NCBI GenBank assembly: GCA_030684635.1
Contig: JAUXUW010000129.1
Coordinates: forward strand, 1-63,846
DNA length: 63,846 nt
Source of the DNA: Dehalococcoidia bacterium
GTDB taxonomy: Bacteria > Chloroflexota > Dehalococcoidia > UBA2979
Direction of reading: 5' to 3'
The notes beneath the pieces are model-generated. The model was not told the origin of the DNA. It ran no database searches and saw only the letters and a program-made list of their open reading frames with translations. Positions 12,012 through 60,015 of this stretch are shown piece after piece; within the stretch, counting starts at the first letter, position 1; every line of letters starts with the position of its first letter. The position numbers and the translations under genes are program-made.

Positions 12012-13073
12012 CTACGCCCAGCCCAGCACGCGCTCCACCGCCTCCGCTTCGGCGGGGGCAGAGTGGCGGGTCACCTCGATCGTCATCGCGGTGTCCGGGT
12101 CCTTCAGGCCGTGGCCGGTCAGCACGCACACCGCTACCTGGCCTGTCAGGTCCACGCCCGCGCGGTGCTGCTTCATGAGGCCGGCGAGCGAGGCGGCCGA
12201 GGCGGGCTCGCAGAAGATGCCCTCGTCTCGACCCAGCCGGCGGTATGCCTCCAGGATCTCGTCGTCCGAGACCGCCGAGATGTTCCCGCCGGAGGAGTCG
12301 CGCGCGTTGATCGCACCCTCCCAGGACGCCGGGTTGCCGATCCGGATCGCCGTGGCGATGGTCTCCGGGTGCTCCACCGGGTGGCCGAGGACCAGCGGCG
12401 CGGCGCCCTCCGCCTGGAAGCCCCACATGCGCGGTTTCCCGCTGGTGCGCTCCAGCCGGTGGTACTCCTCGAATCCCCCCCAGTAGGCGGTGATGTTGCC
12501 GGCGTTGCCGACCGGGATACAGAGCAGGTCGGGCGCGTCACCCAGGTCGTCCACGATCTCGAACGCCGCAGTCTTCTGCCCGGCGATCCGGTGCGGGTTC
12601 ACGGAGTTCACCAGGGCGACCGTGTGCCGCTCCGAGATCTCGCGCACGATCCGCAGTGCGTCATCGAAGGAGCCCTCGATCTGCACGATCTCAGCACCGT
12701 GCATCACGGCCTGCGCCAGCTTACCCATGGCGATCTTGCCGTCCGGCACCACCACGTACGCCTTCAGCCCATGCCGCACCGCGTACGCGGCGGCCGAGGC
12801 GGAGGTGTTGCCGGTGGAGGCGCAGATCACAGCGCGGGCGCCCTCTTCCGCCGCCTTCGCGACCGCCAGCACCATGCCGCGGTCCTTGAACGACCCGGTC
12901 GGGTTCATCGACTCCAGCTTGAAGTAGAGGCCCTTCAGCCCCAGTTCCCCCTCAAGGGCGCGCGAGCGGACGAGCGGCGTGCCGCCCTCTCCCAGCGTGA
13001 CCATCGGCGTCCGGTCCGTCACCGGCAGCAACGAGCGGTAGCGCTCCAGGATGAACCGATTCTCGGTGCTCAC
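12012..13073 (-). CDS. thrC: Threonine synthase (short, housekeeping type)
   Basis: 353 aa with the PLP lysine motif [13 protein letters not shown] start overlaps the upstream ORF stop (GTGA). In an operon with hom. Confidence 0.93.
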
Positions 13074-14128
13074 AGCGGCTGCTCCTGCTCGGCTTCGTCG
13101 GACTGTTCGAACAGCCTGACCATCAGGCCCCGCGCGACACGGATGTCGCGCTCGATCTCCTCGATCTCGCGGCGGCGACTCTCCTCTTCGGAGCGGACGA
13201 TCCGCCGAAAATGGTCCACCACCGCGTCGCGTTGCGCCTCGATCCGCTCGCTCAGGGCGCGTCGCTGCTCGCTCTCGCCGGCGAGCAGGCGCGTCAGCAA
13301 CGCGCGCTCCTCCGACTCCGCGGCCAGCGCCAGCCGGATCTCCTCCAGCGCCTCCTCGGCGCGGCTCACGCGGTCCTCCAGTCGGGCGCGGGTCGCGCGC
13401 TGCTGCTCGACGACCTCAAGGAGTTCCGCCTCACGGTCGCGGACGGAGCGCAGCGCGGACACTTCGTCGTCCAGCCGCCGCTGATCGAGCAACGTCGTCC
13501 GGGCGCGTGACTCGATCGCTTCGAGGTTCGTGAGGAACGTCGAGAGGCTCGCGGCCAGGCGCGCGATCTCTGTGCCCTGGTGGCGGGAGGATTCGCGCTC
13601 CGCGGCCAGTTGCCGTTCTAGCCGCTCCAGCCGCGCATCCACGTGCTCGTCCACCGTGTCGTCAGCGGCGATCTCCTGCACGATCGTCCGCTGGCGTTCG
13701 GCGGAGGCCGCCTCGCGCCCGTCGAACTGGTCGAGGCGGCTCGCGATCACCTCCAGCACCCGCCGGAGCTCCCGCTCCGACTCTGAGTCGCGCTGGGAGG
13801 CCCGCTCCACCTGTGCCGACAGGTCACGGCGCAGGGAGACCTCCTGTAGCAGGCGCTCCTCCAGCGCGGCGATCTCCTGCCGCATCTCGCGCCCGGACTC
13901 CTGCCCGGCCTCGTGCCGCTGGGTGCGCCCGTCAACGAGGCTGACCGACTCTGCGAGGCGCGCGACCTCGTCGCGCTGCACGCGCAGCGTCTCTTCCACA
14001 TGCTGGACTTCTCGGTTCAGGGCCTCCAGCCGCGTCAGCGCGCGCTGGATGTCTTCGCCGACCCACGTCTCTCGCCCCGGTGGGTGCTCAGCCCGCAACA
14101 GTCCACCGTCCGGTGCTGACTCCGGCAT
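13070..14128 (-). CDS. Hypothetical Glu/Arg-rich coiled-coil protein
   Basis: 352-aa ORF that exactly fills the hom-thrC gap, 8 nt after the hom stop and with a 4-nt overlap with the thrC start. GC3-rich codons. Long heptad-like E/R/L/A sequence with no recognisable catalytic motif. Confidence 0.6.
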
Positions 14129-14136
14129 GGCCGTCG

Positions 14137-15429
14137 CTAGCCTTCCATCGGCAGGACGTTGCCGACCTCGACCACGGAGTCCATGCGGCGGATCTCCGCG
14201 AGCGCGCCCTGCAGCGCCGCCCCGGACGCACGGTGCACCGTCAGCACCAGTTCCGCGGTGCCTTCAGTCGCCTGGTCTTCCGAGTCGAACTGGATGACCG
14301 AGGCGATCGAGATCTGCGCGTCGCCCAGCGACTTCGCGATCCGCGCCAGGACTCCCGGCTGGTCCAGCACACGGATGCGCAGGTAGTACCGCGCCATGTG
14401 CTCCTCGGGCGGGCGCACGCGCACGCGCCGGCGCGGCACCGCCGGCCGGGGCGCGCGCTCCGCGACGATGTCCTGCGCGATGTCCAGCACATCCGCCAGC
14501 ACGGACGAGGTGGTGGGCCCCGGGCCGGCGCCCGGCCCCTCAAACAGCACACGGCCGACGAGGTCGCCCTCCAGTTGCACGGCGTTCAGCACGCCGTCCA
14601 CCTTCGCCAGCGGCTCGCCGCGGCCGATCAGCGTCGGTTGCACGCTCACCTCCACCTCGCCATCGATGAGGCGGGCGCGAGCGAGCAACTTGATCACCGA
14701 CCCCAGTTGCCCGGCATAGGCGATGTCGCGTGCGGTGATGCCGGAGATGCCCTGGCGCGTGACCTCGCCCGGGGCCACGTCCACGTTGAAGGCGAGCCCG
14801 CAGAGCACGGCGATCTTGTAGGAGGCGTCAAAGCCCTCCACGTCCGCAGTCGGGTCGGGCTCGGCGTAGCCCAGGCGCTGCGCCTCCGCCAGGATCGCGC
14901 CGTAGTCCGCGCCCTGCTGGGTCATGGCGGTCAGCATGTAGTTGGTGGTGCCGTTGATGATCGCCGTGACCGCCGTCACCTCGTTCGCGAGCAGGTCGCG
15001 CGAGAGTGGTGCGATCACGGGGATGCCGCCGCCGACGGAGGCTTCGTAGAGCAGCCGCACGCCGTGGTCGGCCGCGATCTGCAGCAGCGACGCGCCGGCC
15101 TTCGCGATCACTTCCTTGTTCGCCGTCACCACGTGCTTACCCGCGCGCAGCGACTGCTCGATGTAGGTGCGCGCCGGCTCCTCGCCGCCCATCAACTCCA
15201 CGACGATCTGCGTGCCGCCGTCACCCAGCACGTCTTCGATCCGCGTGGTGAGCTGATCGGCACGGACGCCATCGCGCGGCTTTGAGGCGTCACGCACGAG
15301 CACGCGGCGCAACTCCAGCGGGCGCCCGACCCGTGCGGCGTACCGGTCCGCGCCGCGCGCAAGCGCGCCCACGACAGCGGAGCCGATGTTGCCGGGGCCA
15401 AGTAGAGAGATGCCGACGGTGTCGGTCAC
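14137..15429 (-). CDS. hom: Homoserine dehydrogenase
   Basis: 430 aa with an N-terminal GxGxxG (LLGPGNIGSAV) and a C-terminal ACT-like domain. Adjacent to thrC. Confidence 0.93.
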   Translation of the reverse strand: MTDTVGISLLGPGNIGSAVVGALARGADRYAARVGRPLELRRVLVRDASKPRDGVRADQLTTRIEDVLGDGGTQIVVELMGGEEPARTYIEQSLRAGKHVVTANKEVIAKAGASLLQIAADHGVRLLYEASVGGGIPVIAPLSRDLLANEVTAVTAIINGTTNYMLTAMTQQGADYGAILAEAQRLGYAEPDPTADVEGFDASYKIAVLCGLAFNVDVAPGEVTRQGISGITARDIAYAGQLGSVIKLLARARLIDGEVEVSVQPTLIGRGEPLAKVDGVLNAVQLEGDLVGRVLFEGPGAGPGPTTSSVLADVLDIAQDIVAERAPRPAVPRRRVRVRPPEEHMARYYLRIRVLDQPGVLARIAKSLGDAQISIASVIQFDSEDQATEGTAELVLTVHRASGAALQGALAEIRRMDSVVEVGNVLPMEG

Positions 15430-24510: not shown

Positions 24511-25236
24511 GTGCGCGTCACCGTCCGCCTCTTCGCCAGCCTCCGCGAAGCCGCAGGGGGCGACCGCTTCGACGAGACGTTTGAGGGCGGCCCGGTGACG
24601 ATCACCATGCTCCGCGCGCGCCTCGGCGAGTCGCACCCGGCGCTCCGCCCGTACCTCGAGCGCGTCGCGATCGCCGTGAACGAGGAGTACCGGTTCGACC
24701 ACGCCGGCGAACTACACGATGGCGACACGGTCGCCCTGATCCCGCCGGTCGCGGGTGGCGCCCTGATCCCACCCGTCGCCGGCGGCGCGCCCGAGGTGCC
24801 GCTCTTCCTCGTGACCCGCGACGCACTCGACCCCGTCGCCCTGCGCGCCGCCGTCATCACCCCGGCCAGCGGCGCCTACCTGCTCTTCGAGGGCGTCGTC
24901 CGCGACCACCACGAGGGCCGAGCCGTCGCCCGCCTCGAGTACGAGGCATACGAGGAGATGGCGCTCCGCACGCTGGAGCAGGTCGGGCGCGAGGTGCTGG
25001 AGGCGTACCGGGATCGCGAGGTCTACGCGATCGCCATCCATCACCGCATCGGCGTGTTGGAGGTCGGCGGCGTCTCGCTGCTGGTCGCCATCGCCTCCGC
25101 CCACCGCCAGGACGCCTTCGAGGCCGGCCTTCGCGCGATCGACCGCGTGAAGGAGACCGTGCCGGTGTGGAAGAAGGAGTGGGGTCCGGACGGCTCCCAC
25201 TGGCAGGAAGGCATCGTGCCGAAGCCCGCGGGCTGA
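24511..25236 (+). CDS. MoaD-MoaE fusion protein (molybdopterin synthase sulfur carrier fused to the catalytic subunit)
   Basis: GTG start behind GGAGG. Residues 1-83 are MoaD-like and end in IPPVAGG. Residues from about 100 on are MoaE-like (LEYEAYEEMA...IHHRIGVLEVGGVSLLVAIASAHRQDAFEA...VPVWKKEW). Confidence 0.88.
   Translation: MRVTVRLFASLREAAGGDRFDETFEGGPVTITMLRARLGESHPALRPYLERVAIAVNEEYRFDHAGELHDGDTVALIPPVAGGALIPPVAGGAPEVPLFLVTRDALDPVALRAAVITPASGAYLLFEGVVRDHHEGRAVARLEYEAYEEMALRTLEQVGREVLEAYRDREVYAIAIHHRIGVLEVGGVSLLVAIASAHRQDAFEAGLRAIDRVKETVPVWKKEWGPDGSHWQEGIVPKPAG
24733..24786 (+). repeat. Tandem 27-bp direct repeat encoding ALIPPVAGG twice at the MoaD/MoaE junction
   Basis: gccctgatcccgccggtcgcgggtggc (24733-24759) versus gccctgatcccacccgtcgccggcggc (24760-24786). 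There are 4 differences, all at synonymous third positions. Confidence 0.9.
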
Positions 25237-49695: not shown

Positions 49696-49965
49696 ATGGA
49701 AGGCATGACCCAGGAGCGCTCGCGCCAGATCGGGCGCGCACTGATGGCGCTGTCGGTCTTCCAGTTGGTCTGCTTCCTGCTGGGCGCCGTCCGCCGCTCC
49801 TACCTCGTGGTCGCGGTCCCCGTCGGCATCATCTCCGGCATCGCTGCCGGGGTCGGGCTGTGGGTGGGCTACACGATGGCCACGACCAACTGGGACAACC
49901 CCGCCGACTGGCCCCCCGACACCGCCGCCGCCGAGGGCGCCCCGCCCCCGGACGCTCTCGGCTAG
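49696..49965 (+). CDS. Small membrane protein (2 TM), hypothetical
   Basis: The ATG immediately abuts the Trm112 stop (TAGATG). 89 aa with two hydrophobic helices. Its stop overlaps the folK stop convergently. Confidence 0.45.
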   Translation: MEGMTQERSRQIGRALMALSVFQLVCFLLGAVRRSYLVVAVPVGIISGIAAGVGLWVGYTMATTNWDNPADWPPDTAAAEGAPPPDALG

Positions 49966-50501
49966 CCCTCCGCCCACTCCGGCCCGCGCACCCGCACGAC
50001 CTCGGCCCGCTCGAGGGCGGGACGCAGGTCGCGCATCGAGGCAATCCGGAGGCCGGTCTGCGGGTGGATGACGTCCCCACCCACCTCCGCGAGCGGCACG
50101 AGCACGAACGACCGCTGGCCCAGCAGCATGTGCGGCACCTGCAGGTCAGCCAGGTCGACCGTCTCGCCCTCGATCAACGCGATGTCGATGTCGAGCGGAC
50201 GCGCCGTCCAGCGCGGCGCGCGGAAGTCGCGGCCCTCCGCCGCCTCCAGGCGCTTCGCGAGGATCAGCAGGTCGCGGGCGTCCAGGTCGGTGACGCCGGA
50301 AACGGCCGCGTTCAGGAATGCCGGCTGGCGCACCACGCCCCACGGCGGCGTCTCGTACAGGGACGACACGCGGTCCACCTCAACGCCGCCCGCACGGAGC
50401 CCGACGACGGCGGCCCGCAGGTGCGCCTCACGGTCGTCGAGGTTGGAGCCCAGCGCCAGCCAGACGCGGCGACGCGGGCGGCCCCGACCGGCCGAGATCA
50501 C
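49962..50501 (-). CDS. folK: 2-amino-4-hydroxy-6-hydroxymethyldihydropteridine pyrophosphokinase
   Basis: GTG at 50499-50501 overlaps the folP stop (GTGA). ...VWLALGSNLDDREAHLRAA...SLYETPPWG...RPLDIDIAL...VPH. Confidence 0.88.
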   Translation of the reverse strand: MISAGRGRPRRRVWLALGSNLDDREAHLRAAVVGLRAGGVEVDRVSSLYETPPWGVVRQPAFLNAAVSGVTDLDARDLLILAKRLEAAEGRDFRAPRWTARPLDIDIALIEGETVDLADLQVPHMLLGQRSFVLVPLAEVGGDVIHPQTGLRIASMRDLRPALERAEVVRVRGPEWAEG

Positions 50502-51340
50502 GGCACGGCCTGGCGCACGACGGCGTCCGCCACGCGCGCGACCTGCACCATCTCGTCCACGTCGTGTACCCGCACCAGGTCGACCCCCTGCTGGATCGCC
50601 AGGGCGACCGTGGCGGCGGTGCCCCACTCACGCTCCTGCGCGGGCCGGTCGATGATGTAGCCGATCGAGGACTTCCGCGAGGTGCCGATCATGAGCGGCC
50701 GGCCCAGGTCGCGCAGTTCGCCCAGGCGCCGGAGCAACTCGAAGTTCTGGACCGGCCCCCACCCGAACCCGAAGCCGGGATCGAGGATGAGCCGCTCGCG
50801 CGGCACCCCGCCGGCGACGGCCGCCGCGATGCACCGCTCGAACCCCGCGCGCGTGTCGCGGATCACGTCGCCACCGAACTCGCGACCACGCTGGTTGTGC
50901 ATCAGGATCGCCGGCGCACCCGCCTGCGCGACCACGCGCGCCATGCCGGCATCGCCGAGGAACCCCGTGACGTCGTTGATGGCGTCCGCACCGTAGTCCA
51001 GGGCACGCCGTGCGACCTCTGCTTTGCTCGTGTCGACGGTGATGGGGATGGAGACGGCCCGACGCACGGCGCCCAGCACCAGCATCAGCCGCCCCCACTC
51101 CGTTTCGGCGTCGATCGCGGCGAACTCCGGGCGCGTGGACTCCGCGCCGAGATCGAGGATGTCCGCCCCCGCCTCCACCATCCGCTCCGCGAGGTGGACC
51201 GCAGCCTGCGGGTCGACGATGCCGTCACCGGAAAAGGAGTCGGGCGTCGCGTTGATGATGCCGACGACGTAGGTCCGCTGCCCCCACTCGAACGTCCGGG
51301 AGCCGATCGTGAGCGGGGCGGGATTCGTCGGGGACACCAT
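50498..51340 (-). CDS. folP: Dihydropteroate synthase
   Basis: 280 aa with GIINATPDSFSGDG...ILDLGAESTRP...INDV...MHN...DPGFGFG. Confidence 0.95.
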   Translation of the reverse strand: MVSPTNPAPLTIGSRTFEWGQRTYVVGIINATPDSFSGDGIVDPQAAVHLAERMVEAGADILDLGAESTRPEFAAIDAETEWGRLMLVLGAVRRAVSIPITVDTSKAEVARRALDYGADAINDVTGFLGDAGMARVVAQAGAPAILMHNQRGREFGGDVIRDTRAGFERCIAAAVAGGVPRERLILDPGFGFGWGPVQNFELLRRLGELRDLGRPLMIGTSRKSSIGYIIDRPAQEREWGTAATVALAIQQGVDLVRVHDVDEMVQVARVADAVVRQAVP

Positions 51341-51771
51341 CAGACCACCTCGATCGTCTCTTCTTCGATCACCCCGCCGCGACGGATGTGGTACGCGCGC
51401 ACGTCCGGTGGATCCTGAGCGAGCGACACGAGGATGTAGAACGTCCCCGGGAACATCGGCTCCTGCTCCACCTCGCCGGGCGGGAAGAACGCCATCCTCA
51501 CGTCGGTCGGTGACGGGCGCGCCGGCGACCCAACGTGCGAGTGGTAGATCGCGAACAGCGTCTCGCCGGAGGCGTCACGGGCGCGTTCCAGCCGCATCAT
51601 CTGCAGCGGGTTCATCTCGTAGCGGTAGGGGCTGGCGGCGTCATTCTTCACACGATGGACGGCCGTCGGGACGCCGTCGGCGGCGTGCACCATGCCACAG
51701 CACTCGTCCGGCAGGTTCTCCTGAGCGTGCGCCACCATCTCGTCGATGATCGGCTGCGGGATGCGGGGCAT
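51340..51771 (-). CDS. JAMM/MPN+ metalloprotease (Mec+-like)
   Basis: 143 aa with an E-x-CG motif (PDECCGMV) and JAMM motif IYHSHVGSPARPSPTD. Its stop shares 1 nt with the folP start. Confidence 0.88.
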   Translation of the reverse strand: MPRIPQPIIDEMVAHAQENLPDECCGMVHAADGVPTAVHRVKNDAASPYRYEMNPLQMMRLERARDASGETLFAIYHSHVGSPARPSPTDVRMAFFPPGEVEQEPMFPGTFYILVSLAQDPPDVRAYHIRRGGVIEEETIEVV

Positions 51772-51795
51772 GGGGTCATCCGCTCCAGGACCGCG

Positions 51796-52188
51796 TCAGG
51801 TCCAGGCTTCTGGCTCGCCGTCGTCGATGCACGCGCCGGCCACCATCTTCATCTGCAGGAAGTTCGTGCTCGCCGGCTCGATCCACAGGTGGGCGATCCA
51901 GTGGTCGCGCTCCTCCTCTGGCACTCGGTCGAGCAGGTCGCCGAGCGTGGCGTGCAGCACCGTCTCGCCTGCATCGGTCTCCGCAATGCCGAGGTCAATC
52001 GACCAGCGGTTCGCAAAGGCGATGCGGCCCACGGTGCGCGTCCGGATGATCTGCGCGTCCGGCATGCCCCGGTACCGCTCCACCACCTCCGGCCGGAACC
52101 GGAGGTGGAGGCGGCGGCCGTCGCCGGACGACAGCACGCGCCGCAGCAGGGACTGCTCCAGCGCCGCGACTGGCTTCGCGGAGGTCAT
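51796..52188 (-). CDS. Hypothetical protein (130 aa) embedded in the sulfur-carrier operon
   Basis: ATG at 52186-52188 lies 2 nt after the rhodanese stop. GC3-rich codons. No recognisable motif. Confidence 0.5.
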   Translation of the reverse strand: MTSAKPVAALEQSLLRRVLSSGDGRRLHLRFRPEVVERYRGMPDAQIIRTRTVGRIAFANRWSIDLGIAETDAGETVLHATLGDLLDRVPEEERDHWIAHLWIEPASTNFLQMKMVAGACIDDGEPEAWT

Positions 52189-52190
52189 CG

Positions 52191-53015
52191 CTATCGCTCG
52201 ATCGGCACGCCGACCATGGAGCCGTACTCGGTCCATGAGCCGTCGTAGTTGCGGACGTCCGGATAGCCCAGGATGTGCTTCAGCACGAACCAGGTGTGGC
52301 TGGAGCGCTCGCCGATGCGGCAGTAGGCGATCGTCGGGGTGTCCGACTTCAGGCCCTGCGTGCCGTAGAGCGTCTCGAGCTCGTCCGTAGAGCGGAACGT
52401 GCCGTCCTCGTTCACCGCGCGCGCCCACGGGATGTTCTTCGCACCGGGGATGTGGCCGCCGCGCTGCGCCGTCTCCGTCATGCCGGGAGGCGCAATCACC
52501 TCGCCGGAGTACTCGGCGGGGCTCCGCACGTCCACCAGTTGCACGGGCTGCTTCAGCGCCTGCAGCACGTCGTCACGCACCGCGCGCAGCGCCGGGTTCG
52601 GCTCCTTCGCGGAGTAGGAGGCGGCGGGGATGCTCGGCTCCGCCGTGGTCGTGGGGCGGTTGTCGGCGAGCCACTTCACGCGACCGCCGTTCATCAGCGA
52701 GACCTTCTCGTGGCCGTACAGTTCGGTCAGCCAGAGCGCGTACGCCGCGAACCAGTTGTTGTTGTCGCCGTACAGCACGATGTGCGTGTCGTTCGAGATG
52801 CCGGACTTCGCCATCAACGCCTCGAAGTCGGCCTTCGTCAGGATGTCCCGGCGCACGTTGTCCTGGAGCTGGCTGGTCCAGTTCCACGCCACCGCACCCT
52901 CAATGTGGCCCTCGCGGTAGGCCTCGGTGTCCACGTCCACCTCAACCAGGCGGACACCGGGGTCGTTCTTGTGCTCCTGGACCCACTCCACGGAGACGAG
53001 CTTGTCAGTCATCAT
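52191..53015 (-). CDS. Thiosulfate/3-mercaptopyruvate sulfurtransferase (tandem rhodanese)
   Basis: 274 aa with two rhodanese domains. Active-site loop CRIGERSS in the second domain. Confidence 0.92.
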   Translation of the reverse strand: MMTDKLVSVEWVQEHKNDPGVRLVEVDVDTEAYREGHIEGAVAWNWTSQLQDNVRRDILTKADFEALMAKSGISNDTHIVLYGDNNNWFAAYALWLTELYGHEKVSLMNGGRVKWLADNRPTTTAEPSIPAASYSAKEPNPALRAVRDDVLQALKQPVQLVDVRSPAEYSGEVIAPPGMTETAQRGGHIPGAKNIPWARAVNEDGTFRSTDELETLYGTQGLKSDTPTIAYCRIGERSSHTWFVLKHILGYPDVRNYDGSWTEYGSMVGVPIER

Positions 53016-53064
53016 CTACTCCTACTGATCTTCACGAGGCGGGACGGCCGTGAGGGCGGCCCGT

Positions 53065-54000
53065 CTACCACCAGAGCTTTTCTGCAACCTGTTCGCGGAT
53101 CTCTTCGTATTCGGTGTTCCAGAGGCCGGTGGAGAGGTACTTCCATCCTCCATCGGCAAGCAGACAGACGATCTTTCCGGATTCCATCTTCTCGGCCGTG
53201 CGCTGCGCGGCGCGCACCACGGAGCCGGAAGACACGCCCGCGAAGACGCCGGTCTTCTGCGTCAGTTCTTTCGTCATCGCGAAGGAGGTCTTGGAGTCGA
53301 CCACGATCCGGCCGTCCAGCACGGTGTCGTCGAAGACAGGCGGGATGTAACCATCCTCCAGCGCGCGGAGCCCCTGCACCAGATCGCCCGGGTGTGGCGC
53401 CGCCGCCACCACTCGGATCGCCGGGTTGTGCTCCTTCAGCCGCCGCCCGTTGCCGGTGAGCGTCCCGCCGGTGCCGAGGCCCGCGACGAACACGTCCAGG
53501 TCCGGCAGGTCCGCGATGATCTCGGGGGCCGTCGTCTCGTAGTGCGCGCGGGGGTTCATCTCGTTCTCGTACTGGAACAGCATCACCCAGTCCGGGTTGG
53601 CGTCCCGGATCTCCGTCGCCATCCGCACCGCGCCGTTGGAACCCAGGTCGCCCGGCGACAGGATGATCTCCGCGCCGTACGCCTCCAACAGTTGCGTGCG
53701 CTCCCGCGACACCGCGTCCGGCATCACGATCTTCACGCGGTACCCGCGCAGCCCGCCGATCATCGCCAGGGCGATGCCGGTGTTGCCGGACGATGGCTCC
53801 ACGATCGTGGCGCCCGGCGTCAGCCGCCCGGTGCGCTCCGCATCCTCGATCATGTACTTCGCGATGCGGTCCTTCACGGAGCCGGTGGGGTTCTCGCCCT
53901 CCAGCTTCGCCCAGATCTCCACGCGCGGGTTCGGCGACATCACGGAGACGTCGACGAGCGGCGTGTTGCCGATCATCTCCACTACGCTCCGGTACTTCAT
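53065..54000 (-). CDS. cysM: CysM-type cysteine synthase (O-phosphoserine / CysO-thiocarboxylate-dependent type)
   Basis: ATG at 53998-54000. NPTGSVKDR PLP lysine, SSGNTG, WVMLFQYENEMN, ADGGWKYLSTG and the C-terminal ...LWW. By my recollection this is collinear with M. tuberculosis CysM (Rv1336). Confidence 0.9.
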   Translation of the reverse strand: MKYRSVVEMIGNTPLVDVSVMSPNPRVEIWAKLEGENPTGSVKDRIAKYMIEDAERTGRLTPGATIVEPSSGNTGIALAMIGGLRGYRVKIVMPDAVSRERTQLLEAYGAEIILSPGDLGSNGAVRMATEIRDANPDWVMLFQYENEMNPRAHYETTAPEIIADLPDLDVFVAGLGTGGTLTGNGRRLKEHNPAIRVVAAAPHPGDLVQGLRALEDGYIPPVFDDTVLDGRIVVDSKTSFAMTKELTQKTGVFAGVSSGSVVRAAQRTAEKMESGKIVCLLADGGWKYLSTGLWNTEYEEIREQVAEKLWW

Positions 54001-54016
54001 CGGAGCGCTCCTGTCG

Positions 54017-54295
54017 TTAAATCCCGCCCGCAAGGGCGGGGAGGAAAGAGACGGAGTCGCCGTCGCTGAGCGGGGTGTCCTTGCCGCCCAGGTAACGCAC
54101 GTCCTCGTCGTTCAGGTAGATGTTCACGAACCGTCGCAGGTCGCCCTGCTCGTCCATGATGCGCGTGGCGAAGCCGGGGTAGTCCCGCTCGATGTTGTCG
54201 ATCAACTCGCCAACGGTCTTGCCGTCGGCCGCGAACTCCCGCTGGCCATTCACGGCCTGCTGGATGACGGAGGTGACGTGTACGGTCACCGGCAT
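54017..54295 (-). CDS. CysO/MoaD/ThiS-family sulfur-carrier protein, C-terminus ...ALAGG-I
   Basis: 92 aa, MPVTVHV...RRFVNIYLNDEDVRYLGG...DSVSFLPALAGGI. CysO-like throughout, with one extra residue after Gly-Gly. I checked the codons. Confidence 0.85.
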   Translation of the reverse strand: MPVTVHVTSVIQQAVNGQREFAADGKTVGELIDNIERDYPGFATRIMDEQGDLRRFVNIYLNDEDVRYLGGKDTPLSDGDSVSFLPALAGGI

Positions 54296-54407
54296 CGGTC
54301 AGTCCCTTCCCTGTACGTACGCCCCGAATCTCGGTGGCGTCCGGGAACCCCTCGAGGTGCCCGCGCGGTTTCGGCCGCGATCCCCGGCAATCGTGGTCAC
54401 GAAGGCG

Positions 54408-55271
54408 CTAGGCGTGTGCGCCCGCGACCGGCATCTCCAGCGGCGCAGAACCGCAGAACTGGTCGTAGTCGATGAGCTCCGTCACCGTCGGGTTCAGGCC
54501 GCACAACGGGCAGTTCGGGTCCTGCCGCGTCTTCATCGTGCGGAACTCCATGGTCAGCGCGTCGATGAGCAGCAGGCGGTTCACCAGCGACTCGCCCACG
54601 CCCAGGATCTGCTTGAACACCTCGGTCGCCTGGATGGAACCGACGATGCCGGTAATGGCGCCCAGCACGCCCGCCTCGGCGCAGGAGGGCACCAGGCCCG
54701 GCGGGGGCGGATCCGGGTAGAGGCAGCGGTAGCAGCCCTTGCCCGGCTGGTAGACCGTCGCCTGGCCATCGAACAGCAGGATCGCACCGTCCACCAGCGT
54801 CTTGCCGGCGAGGTACGAGGCGTCGTTCACCAGGTAGCGCGTGGCGAAGTTGTCCGCGCCGTTCACGACGATGTCGTACTGCGGGATGATCTCCATGGCG
54901 TTGTCGCTGGTGATCGGCATGTGGTGCAGCACCACGTTCACGTGCGGGTTGTAGGCCCGCAGCGTCTCCTGCGCGGAGATGATCTTCGGCCGGCCCACGT
55001 CCGCGGTCTGGTGCAGCACCTGCCGCTGGAGGTTGGAGAGGTCGACGGTGTCGAACTCCACCAGCCCGATCGTGCCTACGCCGGCCAGTGCCAGGTAGAG
55101 CGCCACGGGCCCGCCGAGGCCGCCCGCGCCGATCACCAGCACCTTCGCGTTGCGCAGCTTCCGCTGACCCTGCGGCCCGACCTGCGGCATGATGATGTGC
55201 CGCGAGTACCGCATCACCTCGTCCGGGGTCAGCGCCACCGAGACCGGCGCGCCCTGTGGTGCGTTCGTCAT
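54408..55271 (-). CDS. ThiF/MoeB/HesA-type E1-like adenylyltransferase (no rhodanese domain)
   Basis: 287 aa with VLVIGAGGLGGPVALYLALAGVG, DLSNLQRQ and two CxxC pairs (CYRC, CPLC). The ATG overlaps the upstream carrier stop (ATGA). Confidence 0.92.
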   Translation of the reverse strand: MTNAPQGAPVSVALTPDEVMRYSRHIIMPQVGPQGQRKLRNAKVLVIGAGGLGGPVALYLALAGVGTIGLVEFDTVDLSNLQRQVLHQTADVGRPKIISAQETLRAYNPHVNVVLHHMPITSDNAMEIIPQYDIVVNGADNFATRYLVNDASYLAGKTLVDGAILLFDGQATVYQPGKGCYRCLYPDPPPPGLVPSCAEAGVLGAITGIVGSIQATEVFKQILGVGESLVNRLLLIDALTMEFRTMKTRQDPNCPLCGLNPTVTELIDYDQFCGSAPLEMPVAGAHA

Positions 55272-55558
55272 GATCGTCCCCCTGCTCCACCCGCCAGCGC
55301 GGGGATCACTGCCACCTGGTCCCCCTCGGACACCGGGGTGTCCACGCCAGCCAGCTCATGAATCTCCTGGTTATTCAGGTACACGTTGATGTGGGTCGGC
55401 ACGTGCCGGTCACTGTCGTAGACCAGGTCCGCGAACCCCGGGTACAACGCCTCCACCGCGTCCAGCACCTCGCCCACGGTCGCGCCCTCAACCTGCACGC
55501 GCTCGTGCATGGCCGTGATGCGGCGGAAGGGGGACGGGATGTAGACACTCACCGGCAT
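55268..55558 (-). CDS. MoaD/ThiS-family sulfur-carrier protein, C-terminus ...ALAGG-AGGRS
   Basis: 96 aa, MPVSVYIPSP...HINVYLNNQEIHELAG...DQVAVIPALAGGAGGRS. The Gly-Gly is followed by 5 residues that include a second Gly-Gly. Confidence 0.8.
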   Translation of the reverse strand: MPVSVYIPSPFRRITAMHERVQVEGATVGEVLDAVEALYPGFADLVYDSDRHVPTHINVYLNNQEIHELAGVDTPVSEGDQVAVIPALAGGAGGRS

Positions 55559-55603
55559 GCCGATTGTTGCTCCAACAGATTGACTTCAGGTTTCAGGTGG
55601 GCG

Positions 55604-56545
55604 CTACAGCGCAACCGTCAGGTATCGCTCGCCGGTGTCGCAGAGCATGGTCACCACCCGTTTGCCGGGCCCCAGCTCACGCGCCACCTTCAACGCGGCC
55701 CACACATTCGCGCCCGAGGAGACACCCACCAAGAGCCCCTCCTCGCGCGTGAGGCGCTTCGTCATCTCGTACGCATCCTCGTCGCGCACACCGATGACCG
55801 AGGCGTACACGTCCCGGTTCAGGACCCCCGGGATGAACGAGGCGCCAATGCCCTGGATGCCGTGGACGCCCGCGCGCCCACCCTGCAGGACCGGCGCACG
55901 GGCGGGCTCCACGGCCACGATGCGCGCCTGGATGCCCGCATCCCGCAGCGCCTCGCCGACCCCGGTGATCGTGCCGCCGGTGCCGACGCCAGCGACGAAC
56001 GCGTCCAGCCGGCCCCCCGTCGCCTCGATGATCTCCACGGCCGTCGTGTCGCGGTGCGCCTGTGGGTTCGCCGGGTTCTCGAACTGCCCGAGCATCACGT
56101 AGTGCTTCTCGTCCACCATCTCCTGCGCGGCGTACACCGCCCCGGTCATGCCCTCGATGGCGGGGGTCAGGACCAGGTCAACGCCGAAACGTTCCAGCAG
56201 GCGACGGCGCTCCAGGGACATATCCTCCGGCATGGTCAGCACCAGCCGGTAGCCCTTCGTCGCGCACACCATCGCCAGGCCGATCCCGGTGTTCCCGGAG
56301 GTTGGCTCCACCAGCGTGTCCCCAGGCTTGATCTTCCCCTCGCGCTCCGCGGCTTCCACCATCGCCAGGGCGATGCGGTCCTTCACGGAGCCTGCCGGGT
56401 TGAACACCTCGAACTTGCCGAGGATTTCGGCGGCGTCCGGCCCCGCGATGCGGCTCAGCCGGACGAGCGGCGTGTTGCCGATCAGGTCCAGTACGGAGTC
56501 CGCGATCGCCGGCTGACGGGTCGTCAGGTGATCCGGGGCTACCAC
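55604..56545 (-). CDS. cysK: Cysteine synthase A-type (O-acetylserine sulfhydrylase family)
   Basis: 313 aa (GTG start) with NPAGSVKDR and TSGNTG, and a CysK-like C-terminal half. Confidence 0.9.
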   Translation of the reverse strand: MVAPDHLTTRQPAIADSVLDLIGNTPLVRLSRIAGPDAAEILGKFEVFNPAGSVKDRIALAMVEAAEREGKIKPGDTLVEPTSGNTGIGLAMVCATKGYRLVLTMPEDMSLERRRLLERFGVDLVLTPAIEGMTGAVYAAQEMVDEKHYVMLGQFENPANPQAHRDTTAVEIIEATGGRLDAFVAGVGTGGTITGVGEALRDAGIQARIVAVEPARAPVLQGGRAGVHGIQGIGASFIPGVLNRDVYASVIGVRDEDAYEMTKRLTREEGLLVGVSSGANVWAALKVARELGPGKRVVTMLCDTGERYLTVAL

Positions 56546-56608
56546 CGTGGCGCGCTCCTGCCATCGCCGGACCAGTGCGGGGCCGGCGAAGATGCTCAGT
56601 GCAGTCGA

Positions 56609-57049
56609 TTAGATGCTGTAGTTCACCACTGCTGTGCGCTCGTGCTCCCGCTCGTGCTCGGCCAGGGCCGCCAGCGAGACAGCAGCCAGTTTGCGCCGCA
56701 TGTCATCGTAAATCTCTTGCCAGACCCATTCCTGGCCGCAGATCGCCTCCGCGCCCGGTTCATGGTTGTCCAGACACTGAAGCGGGGCAAGCGACCCCTC
56801 CAGCGCTTCCAACAGGTGGAGGAGACAGATCTCCTCCGCCGGCTTCGCCAGCAGGTGCCCACCACCCGGCCCTCGGACGCTCCTCACGAACCCTGCCCGC
56901 CGCAATTGCGCAAGCAGATGATCGAGGTAGGACTCCGGGATCTGGCGGCGCTTCGCGATCTCGGCGCGCTGCACCGGGCCTTCGCCCTCGTGCTTCGCGA
57001 GGTCGATCATGGCGCGGACACCGTAGTCACCCTTGGTACTGAGCAGCAT
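56609..57049 (-). CDS. Rrf2-family transcriptional regulator (CymR/IscR-like)
   Basis: 146 aa, MLLSTKGDYGVRAMIDLA...IAKRRQIPESYLDHLLAQLRRAGFVRSVRGPGGG. Confidence 0.9.
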   Translation of the reverse strand: MLLSTKGDYGVRAMIDLAKHEGEGPVQRAEIAKRRQIPESYLDHLLAQLRRAGFVRSVRGPGGGHLLAKPAEEICLLHLLEALEGSLAPLQCLDNHEPGAEAICGQEWVWQEIYDDMRRKLAAVSLAALAEHEREHERTAVVNYSI

Positions 57050-57088
57050 CGAGACCCCGGTGGGTATTCACGACCAATTCAGTCGACA

Positions 57089-57097
57089 TTGTACCAG
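57089..57097 (-). promoter_or_regulatory. Candidate extended -10 promoter element for the Rrf2-cysK transcription unit
   Basis: The minus strand reads TGGTACAAT (57097-57089), i.e. TGn plus TACAAT, about 40 nt upstream of the Rrf2 start. An AT-richer TGAAT-N6-TGAAT direct repeat lies just downstream of it. Confidence 0.35.
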
Positions 57098-57131
57098 AAG
57101 ATCCCGGCCACGCAGGTCATGAATGGATCGG

Positions 57132-57479
57132 CTAGTGCGGCGCGCCGCCTCGGGCCGACCGGATGACTGCCCCCCAGCCGGCCACGGCCCCCAGCAACAG
57201 CGGGAGACCGATCGAGGCGATCGCCAGCAGCCCCAGCACCGTCATCCCGGTAGCGGCCATTGCGAGGAGCCAGGTACCTGCCTCCGAGTCCGGCCGCAGC
57301 GAGCCGAGCACGGCGAGGATCGGGAGCAGGGCAAAGAGCGCCGCGAACGCGGCAACCCGCAGCCTCGCGCCGTCGGTGTCGACCGCACCCTGCGCGATCA
57401 GCGACAGATACAGCACGGCGACGGCACCCGAAAGCGCCGCCGCCGCAAACCCTGCTGCCGAGATGCGCCCGCGCTTCAC
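57132..57479 (-). CDS. Hypothetical small membrane protein (about 4 TM)
   Basis: 115-aa Ala/Leu-rich hydrophobic ORF, 12 nt downstream of the third carrier gene. Confidence 0.45.
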   Translation of the reverse strand: MKRGRISAAGFAAAALSGAVAVLYLSLIAQGAVDTDGARLRVAAFAALFALLPILAVLGSLRPDSEAGTWLLAMAATGMTVLGLLAIASIGLPLLLGAVAGWGAVIRSARGGAPH

Positions 57480-57491
57480 GGTGGGCCGGGC

Positions 57492-57770
57492 CTACGCCCC
57501 GCCCGCCACCGCCGGGACGATGGAAACCTCGTCGCCACTCTTGAGGGCCGTGCCCAGGCCCTGTAGGAAGCGCACATCCTCGCCGTTCACGTAGATATTC
57601 ACGAAGCGGCGGATCTCGCCGCCCTCGTCCAGCAGGCGCTCGCGCATGCCGGGGAACTGAGTCTCCAGCGCGCCCACCACGGTCTGGAGGTCCGCCGCGT
57701 CGATCTTCGCGGTGTCCTGGTTCTGGGTGAGCCCGCGGAGCGGGGTCGGGATCTTCACGGTCACGGCCAT
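57492..57770 (-). CDS. CysO/MoaD/ThiS-family sulfur-carrier protein, C-terminus ...AVAGG-A
   Basis: 92 aa, MAVTVKIPTP...RRFVNIYVNGEDVRFLQG...DEVSIVPAVAGGA. Close paralog of 54017-54295, with one extra Ala after Gly-Gly. Confidence 0.85.
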   Translation of the reverse strand: MAVTVKIPTPLRGLTQNQDTAKIDAADLQTVVGALETQFPGMRERLLDEGGEIRRFVNIYVNGEDVRFLQGLGTALKSGDEVSIVPAVAGGA

Positions 57771-57820
57771 CAGGTCAGTCCTTATCGATACTGTCTGGTC
57801 TCGAAATTCGTGCGCGCGGG

Positions 57821-58066
57821 CTACCCCTCGACGACGTCGCCGAGGGTGGCGTCGTCCACGCGGACGCCCTTCGAGCGCGCCCAGTCGAGCGCGCGCTGGA
57901 TCTCGTCGTCGTCACCCTCCAGGCCAAGGATGACCCAGCCGATGCTCTGGTCGATCGCCGCCATGCGGATGCTGGTGACCACCTTGAACAGGTGGCCCAT
58001 CTGGTAGACCACCGGCTCGCGGACCTGCTCCGCGCCGAAGGTCAGGCGGACGTGCTTCTCCGGCAT
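57821..58066 (-). CDS. Stand-alone NIL-domain protein
   Basis: 81 aa, ...VRLTFGAEQVREPVVYQMGHLFKVVTSIRMAAID...GWVILGLEGDDDEIQRALDWARSKGVRVD. It follows the NIL-domain pattern known from MetN C-termini. Confidence 0.75.
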   Translation of the reverse strand: MPEKHVRLTFGAEQVREPVVYQMGHLFKVVTSIRMAAIDQSIGWVILGLEGDDDEIQRALDWARSKGVRVDDATLGDVVEG

Positions 58067-58076
58067 ACGGTCCCCC

Positions 58077-59336
58077 TTACGCCGTCACGGGCTGGCCGCG
58101 CTGCGCTTCACGCGCGGCGCGGGCCTCGATGAATGCGTTGACGCTCGGCTGGATGTGGAGCGGTTCGACGACCTCGTCCATCACCGCCTCGATCGTCTTG
58201 AGGCCGCCGCCGCTGATGATCGCGACCGTTTCCTCGTCCCGCTTGATGAACCCGGAGGCCACCAGCTTCTTGAGGCAGGCGATCGTCACGCCGCCAGCCG
58301 TCTCGGCAAAGATGCCCTCGGTCTCGGCGAGCAGTTTGATGCCGTCCACGATCTCCGGGTCCGTCGCCATCTCCGCGCCGCCGCCGGTCTCTTCCATCTG
58401 CTTCAGCGCGTAGTAGCCATCCGCCGGGTTCCCGATCGCGAGCGACTTCGCGATCGTGTTCGGCTTCTGCGGCACGAAGTTCAGCGTGTCGTTCGCGAAC
58501 GCGGTCGCGATCGGCGAACAGCCGGTCGCCTGCGCGCCGGACATCTTCGTGTGTGGCTTCTCGATCAGGCCGACCTGGTGGAACTCCTTCAGCCCCTTCC
58601 AGATCTTCGTGAACATGGAGCCAGACGCCATCGGCGCCACGATGTGGTCGGGGGCGCGCCAGCCCAGTTGCTCCGCGATCTCGTACCCGAGCGAACGCGA
58701 GCCTTCCGCGTAGTACGGGCGGACGTTGATGTTCACGAAGGCCCAGTTGAATTGCATCGAGAGCTCGGTACAGAGCCGGTTCACGTCGTCGTAGGAGCCG
58801 CGCACCGTCACCAGGTGCGGGTCGTAGATCGCGCTGCCGACGACCTTGCCGCGCTCCAGGTCGTCCGGGATGAAGACGAAGCAGTCCATCCCGGCGCCCG
58901 CCGCGTGCGCCGCCACGGAGTTCGCGAGGTTCCCCGTGGAGGCGCACGCGATGGCGTCGAAGCCGAACTCACGCGCCTTCGCGATCGCCACGGAGACCAC
59001 GCGGTCCTTGAAGGACCAGGTCGGGTTCACGGTGTCGTTCTTGATCCACAGCGTGTCGAGGCCGATCGCCTTCGCCAGCCGGTCGGCGCGGAGCAACGGC
59101 GTGAAGCCCGTGCCCAGGTCCACCTTGAATGCCGGGTCGCAGGGCAGGAACGGGGCGTAGCGCCAGAGGGTGTTCGGGCCCGCCTCGATGGCGTCGCGGG
59201 TCGCCGCCTCCCGGATCGCGTCGTAGTCATAGGCGACTTCCAGCGGGCCGAAGCAGAACTCACAGGAGAAGATCGGCGCGATCGCGTACTCGCGGCCGCA
59301 CTCCCGACACTTCAGGGCACGATTGAACGAAGACAT
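58077..59336 (-). CDS. Threonine-synthase-like PLP enzyme, long form with an N-terminal zinc ribbon (second ThrC paralog)
   Basis: 419 aa with CRECGREY...CEFCFGP ribbon, PLP lysine motif NPTWSFKDR, and ASTGNLANS. Confidence 0.9.
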   Translation of the reverse strand: MSSFNRALKCRECGREYAIAPIFSCEFCFGPLEVAYDYDAIREAATRDAIEAGPNTLWRYAPFLPCDPAFKVDLGTGFTPLLRADRLAKAIGLDTLWIKNDTVNPTWSFKDRVVSVAIAKAREFGFDAIACASTGNLANSVAAHAAGAGMDCFVFIPDDLERGKVVGSAIYDPHLVTVRGSYDDVNRLCTELSMQFNWAFVNINVRPYYAEGSRSLGYEIAEQLGWRAPDHIVAPMASGSMFTKIWKGLKEFHQVGLIEKPHTKMSGAQATGCSPIATAFANDTLNFVPQKPNTIAKSLAIGNPADGYYALKQMEETGGGAEMATDPEIVDGIKLLAETEGIFAETAGGVTIACLKKLVASGFIKRDEETVAIISGGGLKTIEAVMDEVVEPLHIQPSVNAFIEARAAREAQRGQPVTA

Positions 59337-59505
59337 GGCGATGTTCCTTGGGCAGAACTGGTGACTGAGGGGTGTCGTCGGTGACGCCCGATCCGCAGCG
59401 CCGTGGAGGCGCGCGATCGGGCTAGCGCATCGCCATGCGGCCCATCGAGGGCGGGAGCGGGCCGGCGAAGGAGGTGGAGACGGGCATGTGCGGTTCGCGC
59501 CTTCC

Positions 59506-59630
59506 GTTCATCTTTCCCGCCTCGGAGGTTCCGAGGGTCGGGCCGGAGGGAGCACCGTGTCCGCCCCGGCGAAGGGCGACCGGTTGCCGCGGTTTCTCAG
59601 GGCCGGAACCCTCCACCGCTCTGGATGAAC
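59506..59630 (-). promoter_or_regulatory. SAM-I (S-box) riboswitch aptamer
   Basis: The minus strand reads GUUCAUCCAGAGCGGUGGAGGGUUCCGGCCCUGAGAAACCGCGGCAACC-(P3)-GGUGCUCCCUCCGGCC-(P4)-GGGAAAGAUGAAC. P1 is UUCAUC/GAUGAA, and the AGAG, GGAGGG, GCCC, UGAGAA and GCAACC core blocks are in the canonical order. It sits in the 5-prime leader of the ThrC-like gene. Confidence 0.85.
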
Positions 59631-59670
59631 CGCCGAGGGGCCACCGGCCCGCCCGACGCGTATCGGTTCG

Positions 59671-59700: not shown

Positions 59701-59713
59701 TCAGTGCCCAGAC

Positions 59714-60013: not shown

Positions 60014-60015
60014 CG

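Follow-up and report, generated by a model that had tools for sequence, protein, structure and literature searches.

A conserved sulfur-carrier gene cluster of Dehalococcoidia with candidate thiocarboxylate routes to cysteine and homocysteine

Gene content and conservation of the cluster

A cluster of genes for small sulfur-carrier proteins, their activating enzyme, and several enzymes of sulfur amino acid synthesis lies in a 63,846-nucleotide stretch of DNA from a Dehalococcoidia bacterium of the phylum Chloroflexota (GenBank assembly GCA_030684635.1, contig JAUXUW010000129.1, positions 1 to 63,846; this whole stretch is called the window below). Families were assigned by Pfam and NCBIfam scans of the open reading frames (ORFs) of the window. 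The cluster encodes three carriers, named carriers 1 to 3, together with an adenylyltransferase (E1), a JAMM-type zinc peptidase, a tandem rhodanese, CysM, CysK, a threonine synthase-like (ThrC-like) enzyme, an Rrf2-family regulator, a stand-alone NIL-domain protein, and a protein of 130 amino acids (aa) (Table 1). Only one E1, one JAMM peptidase, and one rhodanese are found within the 64-kb window.

The minus strand carries every gene between 59336 and 49962. A preliminary description of this DNA had listed eleven of the genes, from carrier 3 to the JAMM peptidase, and the scans found all of them on this strand with the families as named. It had confined the cluster to 51340-57770, however, and the unit continues upstream to 59631. 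The junctions had been called mostly tiny or overlapping. This is true of the overlaps at 55271..55268 (ATGA, between carrier 2 and E1) and at 51340 (1 nt), but not of the gaps of 82 nt before the Rrf2 gene and 112 nt between E1 and carrier 1. From the ThrC-like gene to folP, which follows the JAMM gene, the intergenic distances by ORF coordinates are 10, 50, 12, 82, 63, 45, -4, 112, 16, 49, 2, 24, and -1 nt.

Table 1. Features of the cluster in order of transcription, followed by the MoaD-MoaE fusion encoded outside it
Feature	Coordinates	Strand	Evidence and remarks
SAM riboswitch RF00162	59505..59631	-	64.8 bits vs gathering score 44.4; E 1.7e-13
ThrC-like enzyme, candidate MetM-type homocysteine synthase	58077..59336	-	419 aa; PALP, E 6e-69
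Stand-alone NIL-domain protein	57821..58066	-	81 aa; PF09383, E 6e-15
Carrier 3, MetO-like	57492..57770	-	PF02597, E 8.5e-15; tail GG-A
Small membrane ORF	57132..57479	-	No family match above threshold; 3 of 80 related loci
Conserved promoter/operator-like element	57066..57096	-	TGGTACAAT, then inverted repeat CGAC-N7-GTCG
Rrf2-family regulator (CymR/IscR-like)	56609..57049	-	PF02082, E 6e-37; first gene of unit 2
CysK, O-acetylserine sulfhydrylase A	55604..56545	-	TIGR01139, 430 bits vs cut-off 351
Carrier 2	55268..55558	-	PF02597, E 8.8e-13; tail GG-AGGRS
MoeB/ThiF-type E1 adenylyltransferase	54408..55271	-	PF00899, E 7e-81; 287 aa
Carrier 1, CysO-like	54017..54295	-	PF02597, E 6e-16; LPALAGG plus one residue (GG-I)
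CysM, mycobacterial O-phosphoserine sulfhydrylase type	53065..54000	-	Mechanical ORF from 54033
Tandem rhodanese	52191..53015	-	PF00581, two stretches; CRIGERS active-site loop
130-aa protein	51796..52188	-	No Pfam or NCBIfam match; ACIDDGE motif
JAMM/Mec-type zinc peptidase	51340..51771	-	PF14464, E 1.5e-20
MoaD-MoaE fusion	24511..25236	+	ThiS domain, residues 5-83; MoaE, residues 101-215

A scan with the E1 protein, limited to one genome per species, yielded 80 loci, which are the basis of the presence counts given here. All of the loci come from Dehalococcoidia or Chloroflexota metagenome-assembled genomes (MAGs), with E1 identities of 73-94%. When the cluster proteins were mapped onto these loci, the gene order proved to be kept in about 75 species-level Dehalococcoidia genomes. 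Recurrence in so many species at this level of E1 identity places the cluster far beyond chance, and the lineage-specific accident that the preliminary description had allowed for is not what the comparison found. The recurring order is lgt, ThrC-like, NIL, carrier 3, Rrf2, CysK, carrier 2, E1, carrier 1, CysM, rhodanese and 130-aa ORF where present, JAMM, folP, and folK. E1 is present in all 80 loci, carrier 1 and CysM in 78 each, CysK in 76, carrier 2 and Rrf2 in 75 each, JAMM in 72, carrier 3 and NIL in 64 each, and the ThrC-like enzyme in 62. The small membrane ORF, which had been listed among the members of the cluster, does exist, but with only three occurrences it is a lineage-specific gene and not a core part. 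Among public genomes, HGW-Chloroflexi-9 (a MAG of a Chloroflexi bacterium) is the closest, with an E1 100% identical to that of the window and with other cluster proteins that are 88-100% identical.

Carriers, activating enzyme, and partner proteins

The cysteine module is formed by carrier 1 and CysM. The best solved structure for carrier 1 is CysO from Mycobacterium tuberculosis (3dwg_C; 87 bits, E 5.6e-24), with which it shares 49% identity. The best matches of CysM in the PDB are likewise the M. tuberculosis CysM entries 3dki and 3dwg_A, with 296 bits, while the next family scores 239, and the alignment to M. tuberculosis CysM begins at residue 12 and reaches into the C-terminal extension. 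CysM most likely begins with the ATG codon at 54000, preceded by an AGGAG and located 16 nt past the carrier 1 stop, rather than with the TTG at 54033. With a JAMM peptidase of family PF14464 close by, the CysO-CysM-JAMM core that had been recognized at the outset is indeed present, and carrier 1 and CysM appear to be the counterpart of the M. tuberculosis CysO/CysM pair.

The second module begins with the SAM (S-adenosylmethionine) riboswitch, which sits in a 375-nt leader of the ThrC-like gene and was found 5' of the ThrC-like ortholog in six of the seven relatives scanned. The ThrC-like enzyme scores as a threonine synthase but possesses an additional N-terminal CxxC...CxxC zinc ribbon, which is kept in 61 of 62 orthologs. 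A canonical ThrC is encoded elsewhere in the window (13073..12012; TIGR00260, 320 bits), beside homoserine dehydrogenase, and shares only 35% identity with the ThrC-like enzyme, which by this comparison is evidently a paralog of the housekeeping protein. A closer relative was found by tblastn in Nonomuraea gerenzanensis, where a gene product is 52.7% identical over residues 7-402. In the Nonomuraea locus a SAM riboswitch comes first, then the zinc-ribbon enzyme, and last a carrier of 91 aa whose C terminus is AGG; there is no NIL gene. The carrier of that locus is 49% identical to carrier 3, 41% to carrier 1, and 38% to carrier 2. Additionally, carrier 3 and its 64 orthologs form a monophyletic clade whose nearest outside sequence is the MetO-like carrier of Nonomuraea. 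The carrier 3 gene is 307 nt downstream of the ThrC-like gene, with the NIL gene alone between them. The three genes behave as a block, all of them being present in 62 loci and none in 16. The zinc ribbon itself was considered as a marker of MetM and rejected, since genes of Haloterrigena and Chlorohelix match from residue 8 without an adjoining carrier.

According to the GapMind preprint of 2026 (10.1101/2024.10.14.618325), which summarizes work by Hasebe et al. (2024), MetM of Streptomyces albulus converts O-phosphohomoserine to homocysteine with thiocarboxylated MetO, helped by Mec and MoeZ, and a second source places a SAM riboswitch upstream of S. albulus metM (PMC12172450). By homology and layout, the riboswitch, the ThrC-like enzyme, and carrier 3 appear to match this published route. 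The preliminary description had proposed both cysteine and homocysteine as outputs. Both are supported, the latter by way of genes upstream of the range it had considered, namely the riboswitch, the ThrC paralog, and the NIL gene. It had also set each additional carrier beside a PLP (pyridoxal phosphate) enzyme of its own. For carrier 3 there is such an enzyme, again upstream of that range, while for carrier 2 the claim amounts to adjacency with CysK.

The NIL protein lacks cysteine in 62 of 64 orthologs and has an invariant C-terminal GD[VI]VEG motif; in 62 loci its gene is flanked by those of the ThrC-like enzyme and carrier 3. Among the named matches in the best 120, its homologs were found only in Chloroflexota/Dehalococcoidia MAGs, and a comparison with PDB sequences gave only insignificant matches to the MetN C-domain. 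NIL domains are known from MetN, a methionine importer that has one at its C terminus, and from a NIL-ferredoxin protein that the DUF39 homocysteine pathway requires (PMC5764234). That a NIL protein stands alone here, within a homocysteine route of a different kind, suggests that it binds a ligand or has a regulatory function, in connection with homocysteine or methionine.

Two other sets of genes touch on this unit. Homoserine dehydrogenase (15429..14137), a 352-aa coiled-coil protein (14128..13070), and ThrC (13073..12012, with a 4-nt overlap) follow one another on the minus strand. No recognizable homoserine kinase is encoded in this segment (12012-15429, minus strand), although ThrC and a MetM-type enzyme both need O-phosphohomoserine. 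The 352-aa gene was considered for this function and rejected, as its product is a coiled-coil protein with no enzyme family match. A glutaredoxin-like (DUF836) gene lies at about 59714-59990 on the minus strand, between lgt and the SAM riboswitch. It was rejected as a part of the system because it follows lgt in 47 related loci and travels with lgt.

Overall, the three carriers are well separated and represent old lineages. A tree of 216 carrier sequences from related loci resolved into three clean clades of 78, 74, and 64 members, corresponding to carriers 1, 2, and 3. CysO from Amycolatopsis orientalis was placed nearest to carrier 1, and M. tuberculosis CysO about equally close to carriers 1 and 3. 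Carrier 2 is thus a distinct clade with 74 orthologs, which are marked by the signatures YIPSPFR, HINIYVNNQEIH, and AVIPALAGG.

Carrier 2 belongs with E1. In the window the two are separate genes that overlap by ATGA (the split form), but in 44 of 75 relatives they are fused in frame, and this fusion ties carrier 2 to E1. The fused proteins are single frames of 366-393 aa in which the GG of carrier 2 is followed by a low-complexity linker of 9-35 residues and then by E1. Carrier-E1 fusions also occur in the database proteins P0220 and P0225. Additionally, E1 is found between carriers 2 and 1 in all loci carrying both. In the split form, carrier 2 always extends 1-30 residues past GG and never ends there, whereas a C-terminal GG is found in carrier 1 of 32 among 78 relatives and in carrier 3 of 34 among 64. 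Carrier 2 would therefore depend on the JAMM peptidase in every relative, and carriers 1 and 3 in some of them. Strict conservation of the GG speaks for release and activation of carrier 2 and against its being a decoy.

In a protein library clustered at 50%, relatives of carrier 2 (P0260, P0284, P0317, P0306, P0234, and P0250) are fused to various partners: E1 plus rhodanese, rhodanese alone, a second carrier, a cysteine-synthase-like PLP enzyme, and, in Chloroflexota MAGs, a sulfite-reductase-like NIR_SIR domain. The comparison of carrier 2 with these 50% representatives yielded neither functional names nor any hint of what its acceptor might be.

A variation of the carrier tail was seen in two relatives. 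The carrier 2 orthologs of L014 (7263-7572) and L058 (2910-3276) have tandem copies of the tail motif (IPALAGGSGIPALAGGSGA), two in the former and three in the latter. These resemble the duplicated tail of the MoaD-MoaE fusion of the window and suggest recurrent slippage, tolerated because the tail gets trimmed.

The MoaD-MoaE fusion itself, noted earlier at 24511 as a possible further client, is real and plausible in that role. It is encoded outside the cluster and carries a tandem-duplicated IPPVAGG tail (ALIPPVAGGALIPPVAGG) ahead of its MoaE part. Since the duplicated tail precedes MoaE, the carrier would need proteolytic release, and the fusion is possibly a fourth client of the E1 and the JAMM peptidase.

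The E1 covers only positions 13-279 of the 392-position MoeZ model, with 375 bits against a cut-off of 647, and thus possesses no rhodanese domain. When it is aligned to Escherichia coli MoeB (1jw9), both CxxC pairs and the loop cysteine are conserved. The cluster encodes a rhodanese separately, between CysM and JAMM, and the preliminary description had seen this protein as standing in for the missing domain. The absence of the domain and the presence of the rhodanese are both confirmed, but this is not a fixed replacement, as the rhodanese gene is found in 53 of 72 clusters and lacking in the other 19. Its best NCBIfam model is 3-mercaptopyruvate sulfurtransferase, at 141 bits against a cut-off of 250. 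The CRIGERS loop fits the thiosulfate-sulfurtransferase type, in which the catalytic cysteine of the C-terminal domain lies in a CRxGx[R/T]-type loop. In two more distant Dehalococcoidia (L077, 1850-3627; L079, 9970-11786), a rhodanese-less E1 is immediately followed by this tandem rhodanese, with no other cluster genes nearby. This adjacency supports a functional link between E1 and rhodanese.

Together with the 130-aa protein, the rhodanese makes up an optional module whose two members co-occur; in the 72 clusters, both are present in 52, neither in 19, and the rhodanese without its partner in one. For the 130-aa protein, 92 homologs were found. A Pfam domain is lacking in all of them, and the named ones are nearly all from Chloroflexota/Dehalococcoidia MAGs. 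The family has an invariant cysteine in the C-terminal ACIDDGE motif. An AlphaFold2 model is confident, with a mean predicted local distance difference test score of 89.6 and a predicted template modeling score of 0.79, but searches with the protein found no fold match among solved structures (best E 0.4) and no profile match (best E 0.2). From its co-occurrence with the rhodanese and its invariant cysteine, a role in persulfide relay or as an adaptor may be proposed. The JAMM peptidase has an intact catalytic motif of the form HSHx7SxxD (HSHVGSPARPSPTD).

Transcription units and regulation

The cluster consists of two transcription units, unit 1 from 59631 to 57492 and unit 2 from 57096 to 51340, the latter running on into folP and folK. 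A scan of 49900-60100 for promoter and terminator consensus sequences gave nothing useful. Alignment of the regions upstream of Rrf2, by comparison, revealed a conserved element of 31 nt, located 17-47 nt upstream of the gene within the 82-nt gap and unique in the window. At least 63 of 72 loci have a recognizable copy before Rrf2, as against 2 of 360 controls made by shuffling. The half-sites co-vary, GAC..GTC in some loci being matched by GAG..CTC in others. The element looks like a candidate autoregulated operator.

The Rrf2 regulator scores 105 bits with the CymR model and 104 bits with the IscR model, both below the cut-offs. A CymR-CysK regulatory pair is known from Bacillus. In L045 the stop of Rrf2 abuts the start of CysK, an arrangement that fits a pair of this type. 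The Rrf2 protein of the window has two cysteines (C-x11-C) and its ortholog in L045 (8233-8679) has four, so that binding of an iron-sulfur cluster may differ among relatives. In a different part of unit 2, the 112-nt spacer between E1 and carrier 1 (54296-54407, minus strand) contains a short GC-rich hairpin, CGCGG-ccgaaa-CCGCG, with no Rfam match.

Proposed scheme, alternatives, and neighboring genes

Based on this evidence, the cluster probably represents two thiocarboxylate routes, to cysteine and to homocysteine, built around one E1 and one JAMM peptidase, together with a third carrier linked to E1. The hub proposed in the preliminary description is thereby kept. In unit 1, the SAM riboswitch would control the ThrC-like enzyme, the NIL protein, and carrier 3. 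Thiocarboxylated carrier 3 would give its sulfur to O-phosphohomoserine to form homocysteine, as in the MetM/MetO route, and the NIL protein would be an addition of this lineage, serving as a regulatory or accessory subunit. Unit 2 would be expressed from the promoter/operator and comprise Rrf2, CysK, carrier 2, E1, carrier 1, CysM, the optional rhodanese and 130-aa protein, and JAMM. Here, the thiocarboxylate of carrier 1 and O-phosphoserine would be converted to cysteine by CysM. The JAMM peptidase would first trim the residues past Gly-Gly. This step would be obligatory for carrier 2 in every relative, because carrier 2 is synthesized either as a pro-protein or joined to the N terminus of E1, and would be required for carriers 1 and 3 in about half of them. 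E1 would then adenylate the C-terminal glycine of each carrier. The sulfur would come as persulfide from the rhodanese and its 130-aa partner where these are present, and elsewhere from another donor or free sulfide. Carrier 2 is a genuine third carrier tied to E1. By position only, CysK is the leading candidate for its acceptor, an assignment made tentatively, and an acceptor encoded outside the cluster is equally likely.

The cysteine half of this scheme resembles the CysO-CysM-Mec+ system in its CysO-type carrier 1, its CysM subtype, including the C-terminal tail, and the presence of JAMM in the same operon. It differs from the M. tuberculosis CysO-CysM-Mec+/MoeZ system in that the rhodanese domain is missing from the E1, a tandem rhodanese with a novel partner being encoded separately as an optional part, and in that the E1 gene lies inside the operon rather than elsewhere in the genome, with two further carriers at the locus. 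Moreover, the host belongs to the Chloroflexota, though this type of CysM has been called actinobacteria-specific in a review (PMC9547175). The homocysteine half shares with MetM/MetO a threonine-synthase paralog near a MoaD/ThiS-type carrier, the position behind a SAM riboswitch, and a predicted dependence on JAMM (Mec) and E1. Unlike the Nonomuraea locus, 62 Dehalococcoidia loci have a NIL gene between enzyme and carrier, and the module lies beside the E1/JAMM cluster, rather than borrowing both from a distance. The NIL protein recalls the DUF39/NIL-ferredoxin pathway of methanogens and Desulfovibrio in that NIL is tied genetically to homocysteine synthesis (PMC5764234). In contrast to that pathway, the protein here is stand-alone, without a ferredoxin domain, and goes with an unrelated route that depends on PLP and thiocarboxylate. 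Scans that were not aimed at DUF39 brought no such gene to notice near the cluster.

Separation of the rhodanese from the E1 has a parallel in Thermus, where TtuC, an E1 without a rhodanese domain, is helped by the separate rhodanese protein TtuD. Likewise, the charging of several carriers by one E1 is not new in principle, since mycobacterial MoeZR sulfurates MoaD1, MoaD2, and CysO (PMC3227635), and carriers share sulfur-transfer roles in Thermococcus kodakarensis, with three ubiquitin-like proteins (Ubls), and in A. orientalis, whose carriers are used by BexX (PMC11323500). By analogy, the E1 of the cluster would serve several MoaD/ThiS/CysO-type carriers feeding different products. In those systems the carriers are scattered, whereas here three carriers, E1, peptidase, and sulfurtransferase share one conserved neighborhood and the outputs are two amino acid pathways. 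Ubl domains fused N-terminally to ThiF, as well as stand-alone carriers in the same operon, have also been described (Iyer, Burroughs and Aravind 2006, PMC1779556). The fusions seen here are similar in having a beta-grasp carrier domain N-terminal to the adenylating domain. They differ in that the fused carrier is of the CysO/MoaD type, with a strictly conserved GG and a low-complexity linker, that fused and split forms alternate among close relatives, and that JAMM is always nearby, implying release by cleavage. What is new is therefore the conserved assembly, with both amino acid routes beside one rhodanese-less E1 and one JAMM, a third E1-linked carrier, the NIL insert, and a new rhodanese partner. 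Literature searches on Dehalococcoidia or Chloroflexi found no account of such an arrangement.

The role of carrier 2 admits other readings. Each carrier may serve the adjoining PLP enzyme, in which case the thiocarboxylate of carrier 2 would pass to CysK in a second, O-acetylserine-based cysteine route. This is possible but falls short of being likely. The cluster encodes three fold-type-II PLP enzymes and three carriers, CysK is directly upstream of carrier 2 in essentially all loci, a carrier-cysteine synthase fusion exists (P0250), and in Wolinella an ordinary-looking MetY accepts the HcyS thiocarboxylate. Furthermore, a Ubl-ThiF fusion of Pelobacter lies in an operon with a cysteine synthase and O-acetylhomoserine sulfhydrylase (PMC1779556). 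Against this, the CysK is a standard equivalog whose best solved structures are ordinary, sulfide-using O-acetylserine sulfhydrylase A enzymes and not M. tuberculosis CysM, and it is 46% identical to the CysM of the cluster. It also abuts Rrf2 in L045, as expected of a CymR-CysK-type pair, and the physical fusion joins carrier 2 to E1, not to CysK. A reading that can be entertained with the same reserve makes carrier 2 the main substrate of E1 and a general donor for acceptors encoded elsewhere, such as those of thiamin thiazole synthesis, tRNA 2-thiolation, or molybdopterin synthesis. The E1 fusion and the strictly conserved IPALAGG motif are in agreement with such a role, carrier 2 passes the SAMP1/MoaD-type model (61.5 bits vs 60), and the TtuC E1 of Thermus serves several pathways. 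Carriers in Thermococcus serve tungsten-cofactor and tRNA-thiouridine synthesis, partly redundantly (PMC11323500). However, no ThiG, TtuA, or separate MoaE was noticed near the cluster, outside of which only selected ORFs were scanned, molybdopterin synthesis has its own MoaD-MoaE fusion, and carrier 2 is a 91-aa protein of the CysO/MoaD type and not of the 66-aa ThiS/TtuB type.

Two further alternatives concern the system as a whole. It is improbable that one or more of the carriers, most likely carrier 2, serve mainly as ubiquitin-like modifiers of the SAMP/TtuB type with JAMM as the deconjugating isopeptidase. Dual roles as carrier and modifier are documented in archaea (PMC11323500; PMC4443979), the NCBIfam SAMP1 cut-off of 60 is narrowly exceeded by carrier 3 (62.5) and carrier 2 (61.5), and E1 and JAMM match the UbaA and desampylase models, respectively. 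Yet carrier 1 remains below the same cut-off (57.1 vs 60), E1 (319 vs 450) and JAMM (55.5 vs 130) score far under the equivalog cut-offs, all of the neighbors are enzymes of sulfur metabolism, unit 1 is controlled by a SAM riboswitch, and no E2- or E3-like gene is present. The locus could also be a mere neighborhood of sulfur genes, with carriers charged by different E1s encoded elsewhere and no shared hub, but this is very improbable. The visible genome amounts to 64 kb, unrelated genes part unit 1 from unit 2 in some relatives, and mycobacteria can have two E1s with different carrier ranges (PMC3227635). These points are countered by the position of E1 between carriers 2 and 1 in all loci carrying them, by the tails of the three carriers in the window (GG-A, GG-AGGRS, and GG-I), all of which need the one JAMM of the cluster, and by the account in the GapMind preprint that actinomycete MetM/MetO borrow MoeZ and Mec encoded elsewhere (10.1101/2024.10.14.618325), so that sharing would be the norm.

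Several observations weigh against the scheme of two routes around one E1 and one JAMM. The chemistry, the choice of substrates, and the sharing of a single E1 are all deduced from the observed families, layout, conservation, fusion, riboswitch, and co-occurrence. Membership of the ThrC-like enzyme in MetM is drawn from a proxy ortholog and from context, not from the characterized S. albulus MetM sequence, and zinc-ribbon ThrC-like proteins of 35-38% identity occur in Haloterrigena (haloarchaea) and Chlorohelix with no adjoining carrier. A regulatory or accessory subunit role for the NIL protein, with methionine or homocysteine as its ligand, is guesswork, and the acceptor proposed for carrier 2 is likewise a guess. 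The rhodanese pair, being absent from 19 of the 72 clusters, is not essential to the mechanism. Co-localization of the two units is loose, as 1.2-5.5 kb separate carrier 3 from Rrf2 in several relatives; the gap examined in L045 (4362-8233) encodes two enolase-superfamily proteins and an amidase, all unrelated, and that of L069 spans 2861-8336. Lastly, the gene count covers 64 kb, and further E1, JAMM, or rhodanese genes may sit elsewhere in the genome.

If the scheme is right, the cluster predicts that, in a large, mostly uncultured group of Dehalococcoidia, both sulfur amino acids are built from the phosphorylated forms of serine and homoserine, with sulfur bound to protein, whereas acetylated precursors and free sulfide are not used. 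Because automated annotation labels the key enzyme as 'threonine synthase' and calls the NIL protein an 'FeS-binding protein', reconstructions from MAGs would wrongly show a gap in methionine synthesis. The mycobacterial CysM/CysO route and the MetM/MetO route reported in 2024 would be extended to another phylum, where they are physically joined around one machinery for activation and maturation. Leads for further work are a carrier that is either fused to or split from E1, a NIL domain linked to a second, unrelated homocysteine pathway, and a new cysteine-containing family whose members invariably go with the rhodanese. A more far-reaching view, in which carrier 2, the stand-alone NIL protein, and the 130-aa protein are all new components of protein-thiocarboxylate chemistry, is considered rather unlikely. 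Under it, carrier 2 could be an obligatory first acceptor, a stoichiometric partner of E1, or the donor for a third product; the MetM-type homocysteine synthase could have the NIL protein as a subunit that it requires or as its sensor; and the 130-aa protein could be a new persulfide-relay partner of the rhodanese with a fold unlike solved structures. If true, NIL as a MetM subunit or sensor would be the first clue to the function of a domain on which the DUF39 pathway depends as well.

At the downstream end of unit 2, folP begins 1 nt within the stop codon of JAMM, in a translational coupling of folate genes to the sulfur cluster; the two genes also have this coordinate in common in L005, L007, and L035. 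The folP and folK genes occupy 49962-51340 on the minus strand, and GTP cyclohydrolase I is encoded on the same strand at 11298-11885, 40 kb away.

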